From an uncultured Eubacteriales bacterium (GTDB lineage: Bacteria; Bacillota; Clostridia; TANB77; RGIG9151), in contig CAZXFU010000006.1 of the NCBI GenBank assembly GCA_964640345.1, positions 1-9,544 on the forward strand: a stretch of 9,544 nt of DNA, read 5' to 3'. This document shows, piece by piece, positions 1 to 9,544 of the stretch (position 1 is its first letter; the number at the start of each line of letters is the position of its first letter). Made by a program: the position numbers and the translations under genes. The notes under the pieces are model-generated. The model saw nothing but the letters and a program-made list of their open reading frames with translations, was not told the DNA's origin and ran no database searches.

Positions 1-270
1 AACTTGATTACTCGAAGCAACCAAAAAACCAACCGGATTTATCGTTACTCCGGCACCACTACCACCGCCAAACGGAAGTTGTTTCTCTTGTTGACCCATA
101 CTAAATTCACTTCCGCCTGCCGCAAATCCAAAAGAAACTTTTGAAATAGGAATAATTGTTGTTCCGTCTGGAATAGTAACGGGATTCCCTACAATAGTAT
201 TTACATCAACCATTTCCTTAATATTACTCATAGCCGATGACATCAAACCATCAATCGGATGTTCGTTCAT
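1..270 (-). CDS. ytfJ: Sporulation protein YtfJ (GerW family). The N-terminal 90 codons are present; the 3' end lies beyond the left window edge.
   Basis: My own reverse-strand translation from the ATG (complement of 268-270) gives MNEHPIDGLMSSAMSNIKEMVDVNTIVGNPVTIPDGTTIIPISKVSFGFAAGGSEFSMGQQEKQLPFGGGSGAGVTINPVGFLVASSNQV. This matches the characteristic YtfJ pattern HPI-GLM...KEM-DVNTI-G-PV..PDG..I-P-SKV-FGFAAGGSEF...LPFGGGSG-GV-I-P-FLV. A GGGGGAG Shine-Dalgarno (complement of 277-283) sits 6 nt upstream. The gene lies directly downstream of a ytfI-like gene, as in Bacillus subtilis ytfIJ. Confidence 0.88.
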   Translation of the reverse strand, partial: MNEHPIDGLMSSAMSNIKEMVDVNTIVGNPVTIPDGTTIIPISKVSFGFAAGGSEFSMGQQEKQLPFGGGSGAGVTINPVGFLVASSNQV

Positions 271-288
271 TTTTCTCTCCCCCTTTTA

Positions 289-879
289 TTATCTTCTTTT
301 AACTTTATTTTTCTCAAACAATAGCTTTATAATTTCAATCGCTCTTACCCTTATTTTTGCATTTGCCTCGAGTTTAACACCATTCCCAGAATACCCTGGG
401 AATACACGATAATTAACAGGTCCTAATATATTATCTGCATACTTTGCTGTAACCATACCCAAAATTGCATTAGCTGCTCCTGTTCCTATTGCTGATAAAG
501 CTGCATTATCAAGATCTAAGCAAAGATTTAGATTCATCGTTTCTAGATACAGATTACTAAAATCAAATCTTTTTAAGATATCCGGTACTTTATCAGATTT
601 TTTTACTTCGCTTTTAGCAAAGTCAATTGGGTCAGCTTTACTCTTTATTATATAGCTTATAACCGTATTCAATTTCTCTTTTATAGATTGCTTCTTTCCC
701 TCATTTTTTATCTTCTTCCTCATACTAAAGACAAGTAATCCGGAGAAAACATAAAATTTTAATCTTAACAAATTGCAATCAGATACATTATCAAACTCTG
801 CGTAAACCTTTATATTTGTTGCACAAAAGATTATAAACAATAACAAAATTCCTGTTAATATGGATAAAAATATTATCAT
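289..879 (-). CDS. DUF2953 / YtfI-like sporulation membrane protein (196 aa)
   Basis: ORF track 289..879. It has an N-terminal hydrophobic segment (MIIFLSILTGILLLFIIFCA) and a strong AAGGAGAGAG Shine-Dalgarno before the ATG at 879. It ends 18 nt upstream of ytfJ, which is the conserved ytfI-ytfJ arrangement. The family call rests mainly on synteny and architecture, not on a motif I can verify by eye. Confidence 0.55.
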   Translation of the reverse strand: MIIFLSILTGILLLFIIFCATNIKVYAEFDNVSDCNLLRLKFYVFSGLLVFSMRKKIKNEGKKQSIKEKLNTVISYIIKSKADPIDFAKSEVKKSDKVPDILKRFDFSNLYLETMNLNLCLDLDNAALSAIGTGAANAILGMVTAKYADNILGPVNYRVFPGYSGNGVKLEANAKIRVRAIEIIKLLFEKNKVKRR

Positions 880-946
880 GTTCTCTCTCCTTGATAAGTT
901 TTCTTACATTCTACATTATCGGTAAATATAAAAAAACATTTAACAG

Positions 947-1507
947 TTACTGTTCCCCCTCAAGGAATTTAGCATTTTCTTCTTTCTTGGTAACATCAAA
1001 CTCCGGCAAATCTTTTAAACTTTTATACCCAAATTTTCTCAAAAATTCCTGCGTTGTAGAATACAGCAGCGGTCTACCTGGCAAATCTGCTCTGCCAATA
1101 TCTTCTATAAGCCCAAACTCAGCCAATGTATTTAGAGCATAATCTGAATTTACGCCTCTTATCTTTTCAACTTCAACCCTTGTTATAGGCTGCTTGTATG
1201 CTACTATAGCCAAAGTCTCCATTGCAGATTGGGAAAGTGCTTTTTTAGGCTTTTTTTCCTGTATTTTTCTTATATATTCATGATATTTAGGCTTTGTACA
1301 CATCTGGAACCCGTCTTCTATCTCTCTAATCGTAACAGGTCTATTTTCTTCATCAAACTGCTTATTTATACCTTTAATATATTCTTTTACATCTTTTGCT
1401 TCTACATTTAGTACATCTGCTATATCTGTACATCTTACTACATTTCCAGCTGCAAACAGCATAGCTTCTATTATCGATTCTTTTTCATCTAATTGCACTT
1501 TTATCAT
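947..1507 (-). CDS. scpB: Segregation and condensation protein B (ScpB), SMC-complex subunit
   Basis: The 186-aa product has the typical ScpB N-terminus (IIEAMLFAAGNVV...) and winged-helix core (LSQSAMETLAIVAYKQPITRVEVEKIRGV...NTL...GLI...GR...PGRPLLY.TT..FL..FG). Its start overlaps the scpA stop in an ATGA junction (1504-1507), the canonical scpA-scpB coupling. Confidence 0.92.
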   Translation of the reverse strand: MIKVQLDEKESIIEAMLFAAGNVVRCTDIADVLNVEAKDVKEYIKGINKQFDEENRPVTIREIEDGFQMCTKPKYHEYIRKIQEKKPKKALSQSAMETLAIVAYKQPITRVEVEKIRGVNSDYALNTLAEFGLIEDIGRADLPGRPLLYSTTQEFLRKFGYKSLKDLPEFDVTKKEENAKFLEGEQ

Positions 1508-2262
1508 TCCATTCTTCTTGTTAATTTTATATCTCCGAAATTATAATCTTGTGAAATATTTACCTTTGAAGCACGGTTTAGCTCAAGCATCGCCATAAAG
1601 GCAGTTATAACTTCAATTTTACTCTTTTCTTTTATATTAAAAACACTATTAAAAATTAAATGACCCTTTTTTAATATTCCTCTTAAAATATCTCTTATTT
1701 TGCTTTTCACTGTAACTTTTTCACTTTCTATTAATCTATGCACATCACTTGCATTACTATTAATTTTTTCAATATTTGCCTTTGCAATCTTCATAAACAC
1801 ACTTGGAATAAGTTCAGAAGAATATGTAACATCTAGCTTGGGTTTTAGCTTAATAAAAGCAATTTTTTCCGGTTCTTTGTAATGAAATTGTGAAAATTTT
1901 TCATCATTTTCACGCATAAGCTCCGTAATCTCTTTTATTCTCTTATATTCTACCAACTTCTTAATCAAGTCCTCTTTTGAAACCTCGTCGTCCTCATTTT
2001 CTTCTTTACTTTGGACCGGCAGTAAAGTCTTAGACTTCAAATACAAAAGATTCGAAGCCATAATTAAAAAATCGCCTGCAATCTCTAAATTCATAGCCTG
2101 CATAGAATTTAAATAATCCACATATTGGTTAGTTATTTCAATTATCGGTATATCATATATGTTCATCTTATTTCTTTCAACCAAATGGCAAAGTAAATCC
2201 AACGGTCCTTCAAAATTATTTATTTTTATTTTATATGAATTCGTTTCACTAAAATTCTCCAT
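1504..2262 (-). CDS. scpA: Segregation and condensation protein A (ScpA), SMC kleisin
   Basis: The 252-aa product carries the hallmark ScpA N-terminal motif FEGPLDLLCHLVERNKMNIYDIPIIEITNQYVDYL (compare B. subtilis FEGPLDLLLHLI...IDIYDIP). It lies immediately upstream of scpB and is translationally coupled to it. Confidence 0.92.
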   Translation of the reverse strand: MENFSETNSYKIKINNFEGPLDLLCHLVERNKMNIYDIPIIEITNQYVDYLNSMQAMNLEIAGDFLIMASNLLYLKSKTLLPVQSKEENEDDEVSKEDLIKKLVEYKRIKEITELMRENDEKFSQFHYKEPEKIAFIKLKPKLDVTYSSELIPSVFMKIAKANIEKINSNASDVHRLIESEKVTVKSKIRDILRGILKKGHLIFNSVFNIKEKSKIEVITAFMAMLELNRASKVNISQDYNFGDIKLTRRME

Positions 2263-3133
2263 CTAACTCTTTTACCTCATTCGTCAAGACTTTTTTTTCA
2301 ACACTTTCCTTATATAAAGCCACAATAGTTAACTTGATTAAATTTATAAATTTATTACTAACAAGCTCAGCCGTTTCTTTAACTTCATCATGAGATAATG
2401 GATCCGCTAAAATTCCAGCAGCCATGTTTGTTATACAAGAAATTGCAACAACTCTTAAGTTAGAATGGTGTGCTACTATAGCTTCCGGAACAGTAGACAT
2501 CCCGACAGCATCTGCTCCGAGCGTTCTAAGTGCTTTTACCTCACTAGGTGTTTCATAATTAGGCCCTTGCAAATACGCATAAACTCCCTCATTTATATTT
2601 ATTCCGAGTTCCTCTGAACTTTTCTCAATAATACGCAAAATATTTCTATCATACACATTAGACATATCCGGAAATCTAGGGCCAAATTCATCCAAATTTT
2701 TTCCTCTTAAAGGCGATACACCAGAAAAATTTATATGATCACTAATAAGCATAAGGTCTCCAGGGACATAATTCAGATTAATACCACCAGCAGCATTTGT
2801 TAATATTAAATTTTTTATACCCATTTTCGCAAAAATACGTACAGGAAAAGTAACCTGAGCCATATCATATCCCTCATAATAATGGAATCTTCCATTCATT
2901 ACCAATACAGGGATATAATTTATCTTACCGTAAATAAGTTCGCCCGCATGACCTACAACCGTTGACTCAGGGAAATGCGGTATTTCCTTATACGGTATAA
3001 CTATCCTATTTTCAAGTTCTTCTGCAAACAATCCTAAGCCGGAGCCTAAAACTATAGCTGTTTCAGGTATTCCTGGAATTCTAGCCATAATATATTCAAC
3101 CGTTTCTGTAAACCACTCATTAGGAATATTCAT
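2249..3133 (-). CDS. punA: Purine nucleoside phosphorylase, trimeric PunA/PNP type (294 aa)
   Basis: PNP family motifs are present: IVLGSGLG, GHAGELIYG, GRFHYYEG, TNAAGG, YETPSE and GADAVGMSTVPE. An AGAGGCGGA-type ribosome-binding site precedes the ATG at 3133. The 3' end overlaps the scpA start by 14 nt. Confidence 0.9.
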   Translation of the reverse strand: MNIPNEWFTETVEYIMARIPGIPETAIVLGSGLGLFAEELENRIVIPYKEIPHFPESTVVGHAGELIYGKINYIPVLVMNGRFHYYEGYDMAQVTFPVRIFAKMGIKNLILTNAAGGINLNYVPGDLMLISDHINFSGVSPLRGKNLDEFGPRFPDMSNVYDRNILRIIEKSSEELGININEGVYAYLQGPNYETPSEVKALRTLGADAVGMSTVPEAIVAHHSNLRVVAISCITNMAAGILADPLSHDEVKETAELVSNKFINLIKLTIVALYKESVEKKVLTNEVKELDGEF

Positions 3134-3154
3134 CTTTTCCGCCTCTCTTTACAA

Positions 3155-3628
3155 TTAAATTTCTTCCTCATTATCTTTTAATATTCTTATTGCTTTATTA
3201 ATATCTGCTAAAGAAAAACCTTTTCTCACACAATATAATTTTATCTTATTTTTCTCATCAAAATCTATAGTTTTTAAAAATTTCTTTTTTTCAAGTATTT
3301 TCATTATTGCATCAATATCAGTTATTTCCGGATTATTAAAATATTTTTCTATAAGTTCATCTGATATTCCCTTATTCTTCAGTTTCAATCTTAGCATATT
3401 CTTTGAAAGTTTTTTAGTCTTTTTATTACTTTCTATATTTTTTTTTACATATTCTTCATCACTTATATACTCAAGCTGAATTAAATCACTAATAACCATA
3501 GTAATTTCTTTTTCTGGGAATTCCAATTTTTTTAATTTGTTGTAAACTTCAGTACTTGTTCTCATTTTATACATTATATATTTTATGGCACATGTTCTTG
3601 CCTTTATATATTCTTTCGATTTCTCCAT
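3155..3628 (-). CDS. recX: RecA regulator RecX (short 157-aa form)
   Basis: The product is all-helical and Lys/Glu-rich with the three-repeat RecX pattern: A..YI..K.RT..EV..KL; LEYISDEEYVKK; LSKNMLRLKLKNKGISDELIEKY; KLYCVRKGFSLADINKAI. It is the first gene downstream of recA. A GGAGG Shine-Dalgarno (complement of 3634-3638) lies 5 nt before the ATG at 3628. Confidence 0.8.
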   Translation of the reverse strand: MEKSKEYIKARTCAIKYIMYKMRTSTEVYNKLKKLEFPEKEITMVISDLIQLEYISDEEYVKKNIESNKKTKKLSKNMLRLKLKNKGISDELIEKYFNNPEITDIDAIMKILEKKKFLKTIDFDEKNKIKLYCVRKGFSLADINKAIRILKDNEEEI

Positions 3629-3818
3629 TTTAACCTCCAGGTTCTAAGAAAGGTGGAATGTCCACTCTATGTCGCTTCGCGACAAAATATTAAGGTATCT
3701 TTCGCACTCTATGAAAGTGTTTATTGCTAAATCAAAGATTTAGGCAAACAACTTTTGGTAATAGAAATTTTTTTATTGCTCGTTTCACTCGCTTTTTTAT
3801 AGGAATTTCCTATTACAT

Positions 3819-3849
3819 AAAAAAGAAGAGATAGGTGCATAAACCTACC
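3819..3849 (-). terminator. Candidate intrinsic terminator downstream of recA
   Basis: The minus-strand RNA reads GGUAGGU-UUAUGC-ACCUAUC. This is a 7-bp stem with one G-U pair and a 6-nt loop, followed by CUCUUCUUUUUUAU. It begins 20 nt after the recA stop. Stem strength is modest, and it overlaps the start of a possible sORF (see findings). Confidence 0.4.
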
Positions 3850-3868
3850 CCCTCCTTATGTATTTTAT

Positions 3869-4924
3869 CTATTCTTCTGTTTCTTCCGTAACTTCTTCTT
3901 CACTTCCTATACCTTTTGCAAAAGCTTCAGAGAAATTGTCTCTAACTTTCTTCTCAATTTCTGCCATAAGTAAAGGATTATCTTTTAAATATTGCTTTGC
4001 GTTGTCTCTTCCTTGTGCAAGTCTTTCTCCATTATATGAGAACCATGAACCGCTTTTATTAACAATATCTAAATTAGACGCAATATCTAGAATATTACCT
4101 TCCTTTGAAATTCCTTCGCCATACATTATGTCAAATTCTGCTTCTCTAAAAGGCGGTGCTACTTTGTTTTTTACAACTTTAACTCTTGTTTTGCTTCCGA
4201 TAACCTGATCTGCTCTTTTTAACGTTTCAATCTTTCTTACATCAAGTCTAACTGAAGAGTAAAATTTAAGTGCTCTACCACCAGGAGTTGTTTCAGGATT
4301 TCCGAACATAACGCCTACTTTTTCTCTTAACTGGTTTATAAAAATTACAGTTGTTTTCGATTTATTTATTACACCGGTTAACTTTCTTAAAGCCTGAGAC
4401 ATAAGTCTAGCTTGTAAGCCTACAAATGCGTCTCCCATTTCGCCGTCAATTTCAGCCTTAGGAACAAGTGCCGCAACAGAATCGACAACCACAACGTCTA
4501 TCGCTCCGCTTCTTACAAGAGCTTCACAAATTTCCAAAGCTTGCTCACCTGTGTCTGGTTGAGAAACAATTAAATTATCTATATTAACTCCAAGTTTTTT
4601 AGCATAAACAGGGTCAAGAGCATGTTCCGCATCAATAAACGCAGCTTCCCCACTGGCTTTCTGAGCTTCTGCAATAACATGAAGAGCAACAGTCGTCTTA
4701 CCGGAAGACTCAGGTCCAAATATTTCAACCACTCTTCCTCTTGGTACACCACCGATACCAAGTGCAATATCCAAACTTAAAGCACCGGTAGGTATCGCTT
4801 CTACATTCATTGCAGTTACCTCTCCCAGCTTCATAACAGCCCCTTTACCAAATTGCTTTTCTATCTGAGCCATAGCCGCTTCTAATGCTTTTTTTCTTTC
4901 ATCATTCATTGTATCTTTAGCCAT
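3869..4924 (-). CDS. recA: Recombinase RecA (351 aa)
   Basis: This is an unmistakable RecA: [23 protein letters not shown], Walker [19 protein letters not shown], Walker [11 protein letters not shown] and [37 protein letters not shown] place the start at the ATG at 4924 ([14 protein letters not shown]...), 7 nt after a GGAGGA Shine-Dalgarno. The upstream in-frame ATG at 4957 used by the ORF track has no ribosome-binding site. Confidence 0.97.
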
Positions 4925-4974
4925 AATTATCCTCCATTCTGACAACAAGGTCAGCAAAAATTTTTCATCTGCTT

Positions 4975-4986
4975 GAACATTTGTTC
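4975..4986 (-). promoter_or_regulatory. LexA (DinR) operator / Cheo box GAACATTTGTTC
   Basis: This is a perfect GAAC-N4-GTTC palindrome, the Gram-positive SOS-box consensus. It lies immediately downstream of the recA -10 hexamer and so overlaps the predicted transcription start. Confidence 0.75.
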
Positions 4987-4993
4987 TACAACG

Positions 4994-5022
4994 ATTATAT
5001 TTCCTGTGGCGAAAATTGTCAA
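4994..5022 (-). promoter_or_regulatory. recA sigma-A promoter: TTGACA-17 nt-TATAAT
   Basis: On the minus strand, TTGACA (complement of 5017-5022) is followed by a 17-nt spacer (5000-5016) and then TATAAT (complement of 4994-4999). Both hexamers match consensus at 6/6 with optimal spacing, about 70 nt upstream of the recA ATG. Confidence 0.75.
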
Positions 5023-5030
5023 TATATTTT

Positions 5031-5046
5031 TCGAAAATATTTTCGA
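5031..5046. repeat. Perfect 16-bp palindrome TCGAAAATATTTTCGA just upstream of the recA -35; function unknown
   Basis: Read directly from the sequence. The core CGAAAATATTTTCG differs from the Cheo-box CGAAC-N4-GTTCG only at the symmetric C/G positions. A third TCGA follows at 5053-5056. Confidence 0.9.
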
Positions 5047-5126
5047 TTTTATTCGACGCTTTTTTACATACAATAATTCTTCATTTGTCTTTTATTTCCT
5101 TTTATAAAGTTATACAAACACCTATG

Positions 5127-7307
5127 TTAAATAAAATCCGGTTCCATAAGCATCTCCTTTAGCCCGGAATATCTCTCTTTTTTATTAATATTTCTAACCA
5201 TATACTCAATGCTAGCCAAATTCCCGACAAATACCAAAAGTTCCTTAGCTCTTGTCATAGCAGTATATAAAAGGTTTCTAGTCATAAGCTTCTGACCGCC
5301 CATAAAAACAGGAATAACAACCACAGGGAATTCGCTTCCTTGACTTTTATGAATGGTTGTAGCGAAAGCATGATCAAGTTCCTCAAGCTGAACACTGTCA
5401 TACCAAACTTCTTTTCCGTCATCAAATTCAACCAAAATATCTTCGCTTTCAACATCAATAGCTTTTATTCTTCCTATATCGCCGTTATAAACTCCGTACC
5501 CCTTTTCTGGTCCGTTATCCCACTCTATATCATAATTATTCTTTATCTGCATAACCTTATCTGCAACTCTAAAAACCTTATCTCCCACAACGATTTGCTT
5601 TTTGTAAGATGCATAAGGATTTAAAACCTTTTGTAACTCCTTATTTAAGTTGTTTGCCCCTAAGACACCCTTTCTCATAGGCGTAATAACCTGAATATCC
5701 TCTATAGAATTACACTCCTTAAAATTCGGCAATCTCTCTGAAACAAGCTCTGTTAACCTTACTATAATATCATTATAAGAGCCGGCATTAACCAAAAAAC
5801 TATCGCTTTCTTTCTCGTTAAATCTCGGCATTTCGCCAACATTTATACTATGTGCGTTAACAACAATCATACTTTCTCCTGCCTGCCTGAAAATCTTCGT
5901 AAGCTTAAAAACATTAACACATCCGGACTCTATAATATCTTTTAAAACATTCCCAGGTCCAACAGACGGCAACTGGTCTACATCTCCAACCAAAATAAGT
6001 GTAGTAGAAGCATTTAACGCCTTTAATAAATTATTCATAAGAATCACATCAATCATTGACACTTCATCAACAATAACAACATCCGCGTCCAAAGGCTCTA
6101 TTGATAAATTTGCCAAAGCATTTCTGTCGTCATCATCTATATGCTTTATTTCAAGCAATCTATGAATCGTCTTTGCTTCAACACCGGAAGCCTCAGATAA
6201 CCTCTTTGCCGCTCTTCCGGTGGGTGCACAAAGCACAACATTAGCATTAAATTCTTCAAGAGTCTTTATTATAGCCTTTATTATCGTAGTCTTTCCAGTA
6301 CCCGGTCCACCAGTAATAACAGACACCTGAGAATCAAATACACTCTTTACACATCTTATTTGCTCATCCGCCAGCTCAATACCGTTATCCAACTTTTCCA
6401 CAACGCTTTTTATGTTAAATTTTCCCTTAGTTTCAGATAAATTTTTTATGCAAAAAGAAATATTTTTTTCTGCATTATATAAGCTCGTTAAATAAATCTT
6501 ATCCACATTATAAATCTTTATCTTTCCATCAATAGCCAAGCCCGAAATCGCAGACTCAATCGAATCAACATCAACATTTAAAAAATCAATCAAGTAATTT
6601 ATAACATGCTCTTTTGGTAAATATGTATGTCCCTCATATGAAGCCAGATTCAGCACATACTTTATCCCGGCAGCCACTCTCATAAAATTGTTGGCGGGAA
6701 TTCCTACGTTATTTGCAATATTGTCAGCATTCTTAAAAGAAATTCCCCTGCAAATCTCCAAAATAATATACGGATTGGATTTAACCATATCAAGTGCACC
6801 AGTGCCAAGTTCTTTATATAATTTTACTATATTCTTATTTCCTATTCCGTAGTCGCTCAAAAACGAAGTAAACTTCCACAAATCCCACTGCTCGTTTAAA
6901 GCCCGGCTCATTGAAATCGCTTTTTCCATATTTATTCCTTTTACTTCAATAAGCCTCTCGGGAGTATTTCTAATAACCTCAATGGTCTCTTCTTTAAACT
7001 TATTAACAAGTTTTTTTGCCGTCACAATTCCAACACCCTTTATAATGCCGGATGCCAAATACTTTTCAATCGCCGGAATCCCTTTTGGCATAATCTTCTC
7101 AAAAGTTTCAACTTTAAGTTGCTTTCCATAATCAGGATGATTTACCCAGTTTCCAAAAATTTTAACTTCTTCACCTTCTTGAACATACGGTAAAAAGCCG
7201 ACAACAGTCACATCCTCGTCATCAGCTCCAGAAATATTACAAATAGTATAACCGCTTATTTCGTTCCTATATATAATTGCCACAATTTCTCCGGTAAGCT
7301 CAATCAT
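5127..7307 (-). CDS. recD2: ATP-dependent RecD2-type (RecD-like/YrrC) SF1B DNA helicase (726 aa from the proposed start)
   Basis: SF1 helicase motifs are present: Walker A ITGGPGTGKTT, LCAPTGRAAKRL, Walker B VVIVDEVSMID, LVGDVDQLPSVGPG, IFRQ and ATTIHKSQGSEFPVV...LLYTAMTRAK. It also has the RecD2-type N-terminal OB/HhH region (GIGIVTAKKLV). I prefer the ATG at 7307 (MIELTGEIVAIIYRNE...), preceded by AGAGG. The ORF-track start at 7340 would overlap the upstream gene and adds an implausible MYYKFFYRGFF leader. Confidence 0.9.
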   Translation of the reverse strand: MIELTGEIVAIIYRNEISGYTICNISGADDEDVTVVGFLPYVQEGEEVKIFGNWVNHPDYGKQLKVETFEKIMPKGIPAIEKYLASGIIKGVGIVTAKKLVNKFKEETIEVIRNTPERLIEVKGINMEKAISMSRALNEQWDLWKFTSFLSDYGIGNKNIVKLYKELGTGALDMVKSNPYIILEICRGISFKNADNIANNVGIPANNFMRVAAGIKYVLNLASYEGHTYLPKEHVINYLIDFLNVDVDSIESAISGLAIDGKIKIYNVDKIYLTSLYNAEKNISFCIKNLSETKGKFNIKSVVEKLDNGIELADEQIRCVKSVFDSQVSVITGGPGTGKTTIIKAIIKTLEEFNANVVLCAPTGRAAKRLSEASGVEAKTIHRLLEIKHIDDDDRNALANLSIEPLDADVVIVDEVSMIDVILMNNLLKALNASTTLILVGDVDQLPSVGPGNVLKDIIESGCVNVFKLTKIFRQAGESMIVVNAHSINVGEMPRFNEKESDSFLVNAGSYNDIIVRLTELVSERLPNFKECNSIEDIQVITPMRKGVLGANNLNKELQKVLNPYASYKKQIVVGDKVFRVADKVMQIKNNYDIEWDNGPEKGYGVYNGDIGRIKAIDVESEDILVEFDDGKEVWYDSVQLEELDHAFATTIHKSQGSEFPVVVIPVFMGGQKLMTRNLLYTAMTRAKELLVFVGNLASIEYMVRNINKKERYSGLKEMLMEPDFI

Positions 7308-7329
7308 AAAAAAACCTCTATAAAAAAAT

Positions 7330-8007
7330 TTATAATACAAATATTAGAACACACAAAATATGCAGAATACTTGCAAACAAGCAACACATATGAAAAATAG
7401 AATGCATCCACTTATGATTCTTTCCTTTTCCATACAAAATTGCCCCTATCGAGTAAACAACACCGCCGGCAACAAGAAGTGTAAAGCCAATCCCCCCAAG
7501 ACTGTCCAAAAGTATCCTTGCGGAAAAAATTATAAGCCAACCCATTGCCAAATAACAAACCATAGAAAAAGCCTTAAACTTTTTAAGATCAATCGAATTA
7601 AAAACTATGCCTAAAACAGCAACTCCCCATATAACTCCGAAAATCGACCAACCAAGAGCCGAGCTATATTCTCTTAAAGTACATAACGTAAAAGGCGTAT
7701 ACGAGCCTGCAATAAGTAAAAAAATAGAACAATGATCAATAACCTGAAATACTTTTTTTGCCATAAGATTTGGGTTTAACCCATGATAGATACTGGACAT
7801 CGTATATAACAGTAATAACGTAATACCAAACACAATAGAAGACGCAACGCCATATCCATTATCTCTCATAGCAGAAATAATAATACCAAGAACCAAAGCA
7901 GCAATACCACAAACCGCAGCAACAATATGTGAGACCATATTAAAGATCTCTTCACCCCTAGTGTAAGTCGGCAAAACCCTATCAATCAATTTTATTCTCT
8001 TTGACAT
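7330..8007 (-). CDS. Hemolysin III / PAQR family integral membrane protein (YplQ/TrhA-like, 225 aa)
   Basis: The product has seven hydrophobic segments and the family signatures: E..N..SH near the N-terminus (EEIFNMVSHIV), SSIYH, DH..I (VIDHCSIFLLIAGSYTP) and C-terminal H..FH (HSIFHMCCL). A GAGGTG Shine-Dalgarno (complement of 8013-8018) lies upstream of the ATG at 8007. Confidence 0.88.
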   Translation of the reverse strand: MSKRIKLIDRVLPTYTRGEEIFNMVSHIVAAVCGIAALVLGIIISAMRDNGYGVASSIVFGITLLLLYTMSSIYHGLNPNLMAKKVFQVIDHCSIFLLIAGSYTPFTLCTLREYSSALGWSIFGVIWGVAVLGIVFNSIDLKKFKAFSMVCYLAMGWLIIFSARILLDSLGGIGFTLLVAGGVVYSIGAILYGKGKNHKWMHSIFHMCCLFASILHILCVLIFVL

Positions 8008-8042
8008 TTTGTCACCTCACAAATCTTAAACACTTCCTATAT

Positions 8043-8071
8043 AATTTATTACAATATTTATTGGATGTCAA
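8043..8071 (-). promoter_or_regulatory. Possible sigma-A promoter for the hlyIII-recD2 unit (TTGACA-17 nt-TAAATT)
   Basis: On the minus strand, TTGACA (complement of 8066-8071) is followed by a 17-nt spacer and TAAATT (complement of 8043-8048). The element sits between the upstream terminator and the hlyIII ribosome-binding site. The -10 matches only 4/6, and the AT-rich context makes chance matches likely. Confidence 0.3.
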
Positions 8072-8109
8072 ATAAAAAACTTACCTTAAATAGGAAATAG
8101 TATGCCTAC

Positions 8110-8146
8110 AAAAAATAAGGATGGAAAATCTTTTTCGGATTTTCCA
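8110..8146 (-). terminator. Rho-independent terminator after the repeat/ParA-like gene
   Basis: The minus-strand RNA reads UGGAAAAUC-CGAAAAA-GAUUUUCCA. This is a perfect 9-bp stem (8122-8130 / 8138-8146) followed by UCCUUAUUUUUUG. It lies about 70 nt after the TAA stop at 8217-8219. Confidence 0.72.
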
Positions 8147-8216
8147 CCCCAACTATTGACTTAGAACCTTTTATTAAACCCATACATCATTATTTATAGG
8201 CTTTTTCACAGCTCTT

Positions 8217-9544
8217 TTATCTCTTCTTAAATATATTCTTTATAAATCCGCCTTCCTCGGTATGTCTTGACATAGGTCGCGAGCCAATCGGAAAGACATC
8301 TTGGATTATAATAGAAATAGCCTGTTTAAAATCTTCCGAGAAACCTGCAAAATTCATTTTACCGGTACTTACATTCTCAATATACCTTAAGTAATTCTGC
8401 TCATCAAACTGTACAATAAATCTCTTAACATTCCTCGGCAACAAATTTTCTTCCATAACGCTAAAATCAGGACTTGTATAATATGCTAACGATCCTAAAA
8501 TATCATCAACTTTAACCACAGACTTCATATACTTGTTAATGATTACGGATATCTTATTAGTATCTACATCAGCACTTTTTAATTCCCTTAAGAACATCGT
8601 TATAGGTAAGATATTCAATGTATCCATGTCTTGAACCACATAAATAGATTGAGCATATCTAAACACGTCAGGAGCATCTTTTTTAGTAACAAAATCACAA
8701 TCAATCAATACAACCGAATGTTCACGCTTTGCAATCTCTATAGCTTTATAGACATCTAATTTACTCTTACTTGTCCTTGGAACGCCGGTATAAATACTTA
8801 AATTCCCTAGTTTAAAGGGTCTGTCCTGACCAATCGCAAGATTGTTCAAACTATTTGCTGCAACTTCCTTTTGATCAAGATCCTTATTAGTATAAATCAA
8901 ATAACTGTCTTTACTATAAGTCAAATCCAATATAGCAACATTAACGCCTCTTCCTGCTAAAACATTTGCTATTGCATTGATAATAAAAGTCGTACCGGTT
9001 TTATGTGCTCCAACAAAACATACTGCCTTCTTATAATCTCTTGGCGTATCATACACTTCTTTAATTACTTCTTTTTCAATAACTTGAGTAACTGTTTGAA
9101 TTCTAGACTCTTCAGGTGTAGGACGAGGAGGTTGGAATCTAGAAGGTGACACATACGAAGGTTTTAAGATTTCCGGTTCGGCAGTTTTCTTTGCTTCAAG
9201 TTCCCGCCTCTTTTTCTCTTCTTCTGCTGCTTTTTTCTTTACCTCGGCTTCAATTCTAAGCCTTTCCTCTTCGGCTTTCCTCTTTGCCTCTTCTTCTTCA
9301 ACTCTAATTCTTTCCTCTTCAGCTTTTTTCTTTGCCTCGGCTTCAATTCTAAGCCTTTCCTCTTCGGCTTTTTTCTTTGCCTCGGCTTCAACTCTAATTC
9401 TTTCTTCTTCAGCTTTTTTCTTTGCCTCAGCTTCAATTCTAAGCCTTTCTTCTTCGGCTTTTTTCTTTGCCTCGGCTTCAATTCTAAGCCTTTCTTCTTC
9501 GGCTTTTCTCTTTGTCTCTTCTTCTAGTCTAAGCCTTTCCTCTT
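8217..9544 (-). CDS. 5'-truncated CDS: charged ER/K-type 15-aa tandem-repeat region, then a Pro-rich linker, then a C-terminal MinD/ParA-fold domain with a non-canonical P-loop. Function unknown.
   Basis: The frame of ORF 8217..9152 stays open for every triplet from 9153 to 9542 (130 codons read by hand). There is no stop, and also no ATG, GTG or TTG. The ORF-track 'M' at 9152 is a GTG with no Shine-Dalgarno upstream. The upstream translation is ...[43 protein letters not shown]...[25 protein letters not shown]. The C-terminal part aligns by eye to MinD: [35 protein letters not shown] versus [45 protein letters not shown] versus [20 protein letters not shown] versus [21 protein letters not shown] versus RLVVNRI. 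Confidence 0.7.
   Translation of the reverse strand, partial: [441 protein letters not shown]
9242..9544 (-). repeat. In-frame 45-bp tandem repeat, at least 6.5 copies, running off the window edge
   Basis: Plus-strand units of cctcggcttcaattctaagcctttcctcttcggcttttttctttg begin at about 9242, 9287 (a 48-bp unit), 9335, 9380, 9425, 9470 and 9515 (diverged, partial). Two subtypes occur, caattctaagcc (LRI) and caactctaattc (IRV). Copies differ at only a few positions. A more degenerate copy spans 9181-9241. Confidence 0.92.

Follow-up and report, generated by a model that had tools for sequence, protein, structure and literature searches.

An unnamed ParA/MinD-fold protein family with a receiver-like head and a highly variable spacer in uncultured Clostridia

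Here, we describe a long gene at the edge of a 9,544-nucleotide stretch of DNA from an uncultured Eubacteriales bacterium (GenBank assembly GCA_964640345.1, contig CAZXFU010000006.1, positions 1 to 9,544; the window in the following), together with the unnamed protein family to which its product belongs. The visible 3' part of the gene lies on the minus strand and encodes a domain with a ParA/MinD fold followed by a short basic tail; in relatives, a spacer of variable length and composition joins this domain to a receiver-like head. We regard the family as a new and uncharacterised branch of the ParA/MinD superfamily. On balance, and with moderate confidence, our analysis leads us to favour a role of the protein as a membrane-associated scaffold or tether over that of an oscillating partition ATPase.

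Several lines of evidence demonstrate that the two open reading frames (ORFs) tracked in this region, one of 311 aa that starts with the GTG at 9152 and one of 80 aa at 9239..9481, stem from the 3' portion of a single long gene that the window edge interrupts. First, 8217..9542 on the minus strand translates as 441 sense codons followed by one terminal TAA. The GTG at 9152 is the first in-frame ATG, GTG or TTG from the window edge, i.e., 9153..9542 consists of 130 open codons with neither a start nor a stop, and the remaining two minus-strand frames of 9153..9544 contain 3 and 17 stops. Second, no GGAGG-like Shine-Dalgarno sequence is present in the 25 nt before this GTG (ACCGGAAATCTTAAAACCTTCGTAT). 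Third, the 80-aa ORF on the minus strand (MKPRQRKKPKKKGLELK...) arises from reading a 45-nt repeat in the +1 frame and is spurious; in two relatives, L001 and P0279, the frame rich in Glu, Lys and Arg (E/K/R) is the one contiguous with the domain. L001, with 85% identity the best match in the GTDB representative set, which does not include the window's own contig, is itself truncated. P0279, an 866-aa protein from another assembly, is full-length and shares a 90%-identity cluster with P0001, the public copy of the window gene.

Across the last 362 residues, P0279 agrees with the window protein at 89%, and the match becomes near-perfect from a Pro-rich joint onwards. It comprises a 230-aa head beginning with MKVLFAFNNEKQ, a non-repetitive stretch, the charged repeats, the same joint, the C-terminal domain and a GGFIKxIFKKR tail. 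Its ATG is preceded by the Shine-Dalgarno sequence AAGGATGGTGAG on contig L063. We infer the true 5' end of the window gene from this cluster-mate; by this comparison, the missing 5' part is estimated at ~425 codons past the right window edge and the whole gene at ~860 codons. To survey the family more broadly, we used one genome per GTDB species, which gave 60 loci: 56 with upstream sequence, three that stop at a contig end and one fragment. All 56 loci with upstream sequence have the same head joined in frame to the domain, giving full lengths of 562 to 1157 aa, and L003-L005 likewise keep both spacer and head in frame with the domain.

A stand-alone 311-aa protein that starts at the GTG at 9152, with the upstream repeat being a separate small ORF or non-coding DNA, would agree with the public gene call of P0001 as 311 aa and with a metagenomic contig, L061, in which the frame meets stops 40 codons upstream of the domain. 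However, the 130 open codons, the lack of a Shine-Dalgarno sequence at 9152, and the in-frame repeat or spacer and head in P0279 and in 56/56 informative loci, together with the in-frame repeat or spacer in L001, argue against it, as does the finding that the listed matches among 1.84 billion representative proteins carry the domain at the C-terminal end. This alternative is effectively refuted, and the public gene call is a truncation of a product of ~860 aa. An earlier note, made from the window's letters, had arrived at the same single gene from the uninterrupted frame, the missing internal start and the missing ribosome-binding site, and had placed the true start beyond the right edge; each of these points is confirmed here. 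The note had also named routine occurrence of the domain alone as an observation that would speak against a single gene; among the matches listed, longer proteins carry it C-terminally, and L061 is the only possible exception seen.

A profile search of the 1.84 billion representatives recovered only 374 clusters at 50% identity; at 90% identity, more than 2,000 clusters were found. Among the 150 matches listed, full-length proteins (up to 1434 aa) have the domain at the C-terminus and the short ones look like fragments. Each of the 60 surveyed loci belongs to a genome that is metagenome-derived or uncultured; nearly all of these are labelled Clostridia or Clostridiales, and many are from gut or rumen samples. 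Every database copy of the family is named 'hypothetical', and Pfam domains and functional names are lacking throughout. Thus, the family is sizeable and entirely unnamed; the absence of any Pfam or NCBIfam match agrees with the earlier note, which did not recognise the combination of domains, and the taxonomic spread that the note had proposed to define turns out to be that of uncultured Clostridia. A few of the profile matches have other N-termini before the C-terminal domain, with one resembling the start of a Ser/Thr protein kinase (P0263) and one resembling a different receiver-type start (P0272); domain shuffling around the C-terminal domain may have taken place.

The C-terminal domain comprises residues 42-290 in the numbering of the 311-aa ORF (8283..9029, minus strand) and is preceded by a 25-aa segment (9030..9104, minus strand) that is conserved in the alignment. 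From an alignment of 24 sequences, AlphaFold2 gave a model with a mean predicted local distance difference test (pLDDT) score of 78, with values of ~80-95 in the core from 42 to 290 and below 50 for residues 1-33. Foldseek searches of the PDB with the modelled domain returned 352 matches at E<=1e-3, led by the ParA-family protein 3ea0, MinD (4v02, 3q9l and 1ion), ParF, HypB, BcsQ, NifH and FlhG, with probability 1.0, target-normalised template modelling (TM) scores of 0.6-0.73 and 10-18% identity. The model and its matches confirm a ParA/MinD (SIMIBI) alpha/beta fold. Searches with the domain sequence yielded Pfam matches that all stayed below gathering scores (CbiA, E=0.0038-0.32; MipZ, E=0.001-0.0026; MobB), nothing relevant in NCBIfam, and nothing relevant in PDB sequence and profile searches, the latter at E<=10; the family hidden Markov model with its 374 clusters also stops short of canonical ParA/MinD proteins. 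The MinD/ParA-like domain claimed in the earlier note, which neither Pfam (CbiA, E=0.32) nor PDB sequence searches confirm, is therefore upheld by the model and its structural matches.

The nucleotide-binding motifs of this domain are atypical. Hhalign pairs window residues 43-78 with residues 5-40 of E. coli MinD, the sequence of which was checked against 3q9l, at a probability of only 19%. Under this register, the signature Lys K11 is replaced by Ala, the Walker A Lys K16 by Thr and D40 by Thr. The corresponding P-loop-like motif of the window protein is GAHKTGTT (8988..9011, minus strand), in which both lysines that are canonical in KGGxxGK[S/T], the deviant Walker A form, are absent. In 58/60 loci the family motif is GxxKxG[TS][TS]F, with an invariant Lys three positions before the usual one. 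The Asp aligned with MinD D38 is nearly invariant, and the Walker B Asp and a QDMD motif are invariant; the Walker B-like strand reads VVLIDCDF (8691..8714, minus strand), and its D151, D153 and F154 are invariant in two alignments. The deviant Walker A motif holds the signature and the catalytic Lys, and some members of the superfamily place key lysines elsewhere, as stated in section 5 of PMC11407121. A passage of PMC10482377, citing Xu 2012, describes TadZ of E. rectale as having lost both lysines while keeping intrinsic ATPase activity and using a Lys from an adjacent helix. Because the pocket is so strongly conserved, the sequences suggest that a ligand is still bound by it, and the family would apparently be a second lineage, with no evident sequence relationship to TadZ, that has lost both hallmark lysines and kept a conserved pocket.

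These motifs bear on two alternatives to a scaffold or tether. In one, the protein is a dynamic positioning ATPase of the ParA/MinD type, in which the relocated P-loop Lys restores hydrolysis and which cycles at the membrane or, in some lineages, on the nucleoid, and positions a cargo, e.g., the divisome or a cell-wall or secretion complex. The strong conservation of the pocket residues and the activity described for TadZ in the passage of PMC10482377 fit with this possibility. However, the signature Lys, which is needed for the sandwich dimer, and the equivalent of MinD D40 are both absent, no MinE-, ParB- or McdB-like partner is evident, and a permanent fusion to a large head and a rod is unlike oscillating A/D ATPases. 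In the other, the domain is a dead pseudo-NTPase that serves as an interaction platform. The loss of the K11, K16 and D40 equivalents speaks for such a platform, whereas the invariant P-loop Lys and Walker B Asp argue for a pocket under selection. We consider the dynamic ATPase unlikely and return to both alternatives below.

The head lies outside the window and was read in homologues. In an AlphaFold2 model of residues 1-235 of P0013 (mean pLDDT 79.5), it consists of a five-stranded alpha/beta domain (1-130) and a helical bundle (135-221). Its Foldseek matches are response regulators (PorX, LiaR, DesR and VraR) and four receiver-like domains of CpaE/TadZ proteins (4dn6, 4dad, 4lda and 4myr), with target-normalised TM scores of up to 0.70. 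By model topology, an invariant Glu follows strand 3 (...VI[LHS]E[ED]LE) at the position of the phospho-acceptor Asp in receivers, a Ser comes after strand 4 and the position after strand 5 has no Lys. Alignment of the head with CheY by hhalign was uninformative (0.6% probability) and gave no reliable sequence alignment. Because the invariant Glu stands where receivers have the phospho-Asp, the modelled head is probably a pseudo-receiver that is not phosphorylatable. With P0279 supplying this head, the order of parts drawn in the earlier note, namely an N-terminus, a charged repeat, a Pro-rich joint, a MinD/ParA-fold domain and a basic tail, is complete. Charged and PKVE repeats occur in Gram-positive surface proteins. 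A secreted or cell-wall protein was considered and rejected: full-length homologues begin with the soluble receiver-like domain, without a signal peptide or a sorting motif.

At the opposite end, the window protein has an 11-aa basic tail (8220..8252, minus strand) with a hydrophobic/basic pattern like that of MinD, and this tail is conserved in the window's clade. The membrane-targeting sequence of E. coli MinD is KGFLKRLFGG. The tail pattern is GF[IL]K[NSK][IL]F, with F, I/L and then I/L, F at positions i, i+1, i+4 and i+5; the window version reads GFIKNIF, and its hydrophobic moment is 0.30 compared to 0.27-0.28 for MinD tails. Based on this likeness, the tail of the window protein may be a membrane-targeting sequence; the likeness counts for a membrane-associated scaffold or tether and also for a dynamic ATPase. 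In L009-L027 and L037-L060, endings such as ...F(K/G)(N/V)(L/F)FKK...SGFEKV(V/I)E or ...FSxSMNNTLNxMK(K/R)KY replace the MinD-like tail, a pattern that suggests clade-specific C-terminal docking motifs. A bacterial tyrosine kinase (BY-kinase) is rejected as an identity for the protein, which has no C-terminal Tyr cluster.

No part of the family varies more than the spacer. In the window, at least 121 residues of E/K/R-rich 15-aa repeats are visible (9180..9542, minus strand), as recognised from the repeat structure, the composition and the charge pattern, and they are followed by the 25-aa Pro-rich joint (9105..9179, minus strand), which includes the mis-called GTG at 9152 and is the same in P0279. 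According to Tandem Repeats Finder, 9229..9544 holds 7.0 copies of a 45-nt unit (85% matches), which encodes the 15-aa unit given in the earlier note. The note had named an assembly error in the repeat as a way in which the frame could be wrong; because the copies are imperfect, the repeat is real sequence rather than a collapsed assembly repeat. The visible spacer consists of 69% E+K+R and 13% hydrophobic residues, has no Gly or Pro, and its opposite-charge pairs peak at i+4; NCBIfam matches to TolA and RNase Y are compositional and due to the charged repeat. These features fit an ER/K single alpha-helix rod rather than a coiled coil. The visible part of such a rod would span at least 18 nm; for P0279, with 11 KKKAEEE units at residues 357-545 in a spacer of ~330 aa, the length would be ~28 nm. 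Composition and the opposite-charge pattern from i to i+4 are shared with the ER/K single alpha-helix spacers of myosin VI/X and caldesmon and with TolA domain II, a charged helix of bacteria; this likeness is one of composition, and a 15-residue unit as in the window is unusual.

Across loci, spacer length ranges from ~40 to ~650 aa, being ~40 aa in the largest clade, and the chemistry differs by lineage: L003-L005 and P0002 have Pro-rich repeats of the PKVE type, and L001, L038 and L039 have helical spacers rich in E/K/R/Q. In 16/60 loci (L037, L041, L044-L054, L056, L057 and L060), spacers of 300-650 aa contain AT-hooks of the KRGRGRPRKNP type, two in all but one locus, and six of these loci also have 3-9 acidic (I/L)LPG(F/L)(D/E) short repeats. 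Neither AT-hooks nor acidic LPGF repeats occur in the window protein or P0279. In the AT-hook lineages, these sequences suggest DNA binding and a recurring peptide docking motif, and the AT-hooks count in favour of a dynamic ATPase that cycles on the nucleoid. The variation in length and chemistry argues for a spacer or arm and against a ruler of fixed length. Thus, of the three roles offered by the earlier note, spacer and tether are reasonable and ruler is unlikely.

The genomic neighbourhood adds a candidate partner. In relatives, including the near-identical L063, a gene for a small protein with a signal peptide, two transmembrane helices and an invariant S-x-P at the start of the first helix lies directly upstream at a distance of 40-50 nt. 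Clustering finds this two-transmembrane protein in 52/60 loci, and it is also present in L003, L004 and L063, where the gene has a TTG start (L063:747-1184; L003:7997-8383; L004:8441-8827) and comes after atpD-atpC. It has no Pfam match, and all of its 287 database relatives are unnamed or 'hypothetical'. We rejected its assignment as a VirB2/TrbC-type pilin of type IV secretion systems, for which only 2/16 members gave sub-threshold matches (best E=0.0022) and unrelated families scored equally weakly. Because this gene is directly upstream in relatives, the window gene is probably the second of a two-gene unit, with the partner gene past the right window edge, rather than monocistronic, as the earlier note had it. 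Downstream of the gene, an intrinsic terminator (8108..8150, minus strand) with a 13-bp stem followed by a T-run at 8150..8118 agrees with the strong terminator claimed there; in the region, five terminator-like sites are found compared to 0.8 expected.

A second neighbour is a gene for a membrane-anchored GGDEF protein of ~350 aa (Pfam E=4e-40 in L006), which is directly downstream in 49/60 loci (e.g., L006:10948-12012 and L009:10961-12022) and is absent from the window's own clade. The GG[DE]EF motif is degenerate in 45 of these 49 neighbours (RYMGPKF, RYSGSKF and others), and GGEEF is kept only in L006-L008 and L040. An active diguanylate cyclase as partner was rejected, given GGEEF in only 4/49 neighbours and the absence of the gene from the window's clade. 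Genes for IreB, RuvX and DUF1292 proteins, identified by eye from the sequences, come next after the GGDEF gene. The envelope- or division-related character of neighbours in many loci (IreB, RuvX, DUF1292 and a G5-glucosaminidase) is a further point for a dynamic ATPase. Degenerate GGDEF neighbours, in turn, accord with the dead pseudo-NTPase platform, which would join the small membrane protein and the degenerate GGDEF protein in a membrane signalling complex resembling that of BcsE, BcsQ and BcsF. The precedent is the BcsERQF complex, which joins a MinD-like protein, a degenerate receiver-GGDEF protein (REC*-GGDEF*) and a short membrane peptide (PMC7439463). However, the window's clade has no GGDEF neighbour and, by eye, the GGDEF proteins of L006 and L009 have no RxxD I-site. 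A dead platform of this kind is, in our estimate, improbable to a similar extent as the dynamic ATPase.

In 20-kb neighbourhoods of the 60 loci, we found no tad, type IV pilus, min or par genes, which extends to relatives what the earlier note had stated for the window, i.e., that tad/cpa, min and par partners are missing. Nor does a secretion-type ATPase, platform protein or prepilin lie next to the gene in the 60 loci; L027 has one unrelated GxTGSGKT protein 6 kb away. In the window, the gene and its terminator are followed by hlyIII, recD2, recA, recX, a purine nucleoside phosphorylase gene and ORFs read as scpA and scpB. This chromosomal housekeeping context (recA, recX, scpAB, recD2 and hlyIII, with the atp operon upstream in relatives) and the lack of parB led us to reject a plasmid or phage partition ParA. 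The recA ORF (3869..4957, minus strand) is listed from a TTG, and its real start is probably an internal ATG, which makes the listed start an artefact of ORF listing. A 196-aa ORF at 289..879 (minus strand) with an N-terminal hydrophobic segment has no Pfam match at E<=0.001, and the gene described here is thus not the sole element of the window unexplained by housekeeping annotation, as the earlier note had assumed. An Rfam search of the window returned nothing.

TadZ/CpaE proteins are the localisation hub of Tad/Flp pili, and their architecture is closest to that of the window family. E. rectale TadZ (PDB 3FKQ) likewise combines an N-terminal atypical, non-phosphorylatable receiver-like domain with a C-terminal ParA/MinD-fold domain and, according to passages in PMC10482377 and PMC11407121, likewise has lost both Walker A lysines, with a Lys being supplied from elsewhere. 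By contrast, Pfam, NCBIfam and PDB sequence searches detect no sequence similarity to TadZ/CpaE, 3FKQ is absent from the top 50 Foldseek matches of both the C-terminal domain and the head, and the family lies outside a tad locus, with CpaF/TadA, TadB/C and Flp absent within ~10 kb in 60/60 loci. The family also adds a helical bundle, a spacer of 40-650 aa and a MinD-like tail. It therefore fails to group with TadZ by homology or by locus, and it also lacks the hallmark motif of ParA/MinD proteins.

MinD is among the best structural matches (4v02, 3q9l and 1ion; target-normalised TM scores of 0.65-0.72), and the GFIKNIF tail pattern of the window protein resembles GFLKRLF of E. coli MinD. The two differ in that GAHKTGTT stands in place of KGGxxGK[ST] and a Thr in place of D40, identity is 12-16%, minC and minE are missing from the neighbourhood, and the domain of the window family carries a 550-aa N-terminal extension. 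The third comparison, with BcsQ, BcsE and BcsF, concerns parts: a MinD-like SIMIBI protein, a receiver and a GGDEF domain that are both degenerate, and a short membrane polypeptide, which in E. coli-type cellulose secretion recruits the MinD-like/REC*-GGDEF* complex to the membrane (PMC7439463). BcsQ structures (6yb5 and 6yay) are among the Foldseek matches of the C-terminal domain. In the family described here, however, the degenerate receiver is fused to the MinD-like domain and the degenerate GGDEF domain is a separate membrane protein, cellulose synthase genes are missing, and the window's clade is without the GGDEF partner. What sets the family apart is the relocated P-loop Lys, the inserted helical bundle and hypervariable spacer, and the MinD-like tail.

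We return to the membrane-associated scaffold or tether, which we consider the most likely role and for which we suggest the following working model. We read the protein as cytoplasmic and made of four parts, i.e., the head, the spacer, the C-terminal domain and the tail. By analogy to TadZ/CpaE and MinD, the C-terminal domain would act as a module for nucleotide-dependent dimerisation and docking with slow or no hydrolysis. Probably as a nucleotide-bound dimer, it would dock at the membrane via the tail and/or the two-transmembrane partner, and the rod would hold the receiver-like head tens of nanometres away, where the head could engage another partner. Several observations weigh against this model. 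AlphaFold2 leaves the tail unstructured, and the tail differs in other clades (e.g., ...GFEKVVE and ...NNTLNxMKKKY); because it is disordered in the model and different in other clades, membrane targeting may not be general. The loss of the K11, K16 and D40 equivalents could equally mean a dead pseudo-ATPase, and the register from which this loss is read has the low hhalign probability given above, although it agrees with the strand-loop-helix order of the structural model. Considering its range of lengths and the AT-hooks in part of the loci, the spacer does not have one and the same role in all members. Finally, a domain-only form may exist: in the L061 contig (L061:1-160), the in-frame stops precede the C-terminal domain by ~40 codons and PKVE-like linker sequence is retained, which may reflect a frameshift, a chimera or a rare short form.

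A broader interpretation, which we put forward tentatively and regard as unlikely in its entirety, is that the family and the two-transmembrane protein form a system for positioning or tethering that had gone unrecognised in uncultured Clostridia of gut and rumen. In such a system, a membrane-held NTPase with a relocated Lys would project a pseudo-receiver on a lineage-specific spacer, i.e., an ER/K rod, a polyproline rod of the PKVE type, or a disordered arm bearing acidic LPGF repeats and two AT-hooks, and would thereby link the membrane with either the nucleoid or a cytoplasmic complex, with the degenerate GGDEF sensor having a modulating role in most lineages.

Altogether, these findings extend the ParA/MinD superfamily in an unusual direction, in which highly variable spacers connect the domain with a pseudo-receiver. 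The spacers found in nature, from an ER/K helix through a PKVE rod to a disordered arm with AT-hooks, offer a test of whether the length or the stiffness of a spacer is important. If the protein is indeed a membrane scaffold or tether, the family could mark an unknown system of cell organisation in abundant uncultured gut anaerobes.

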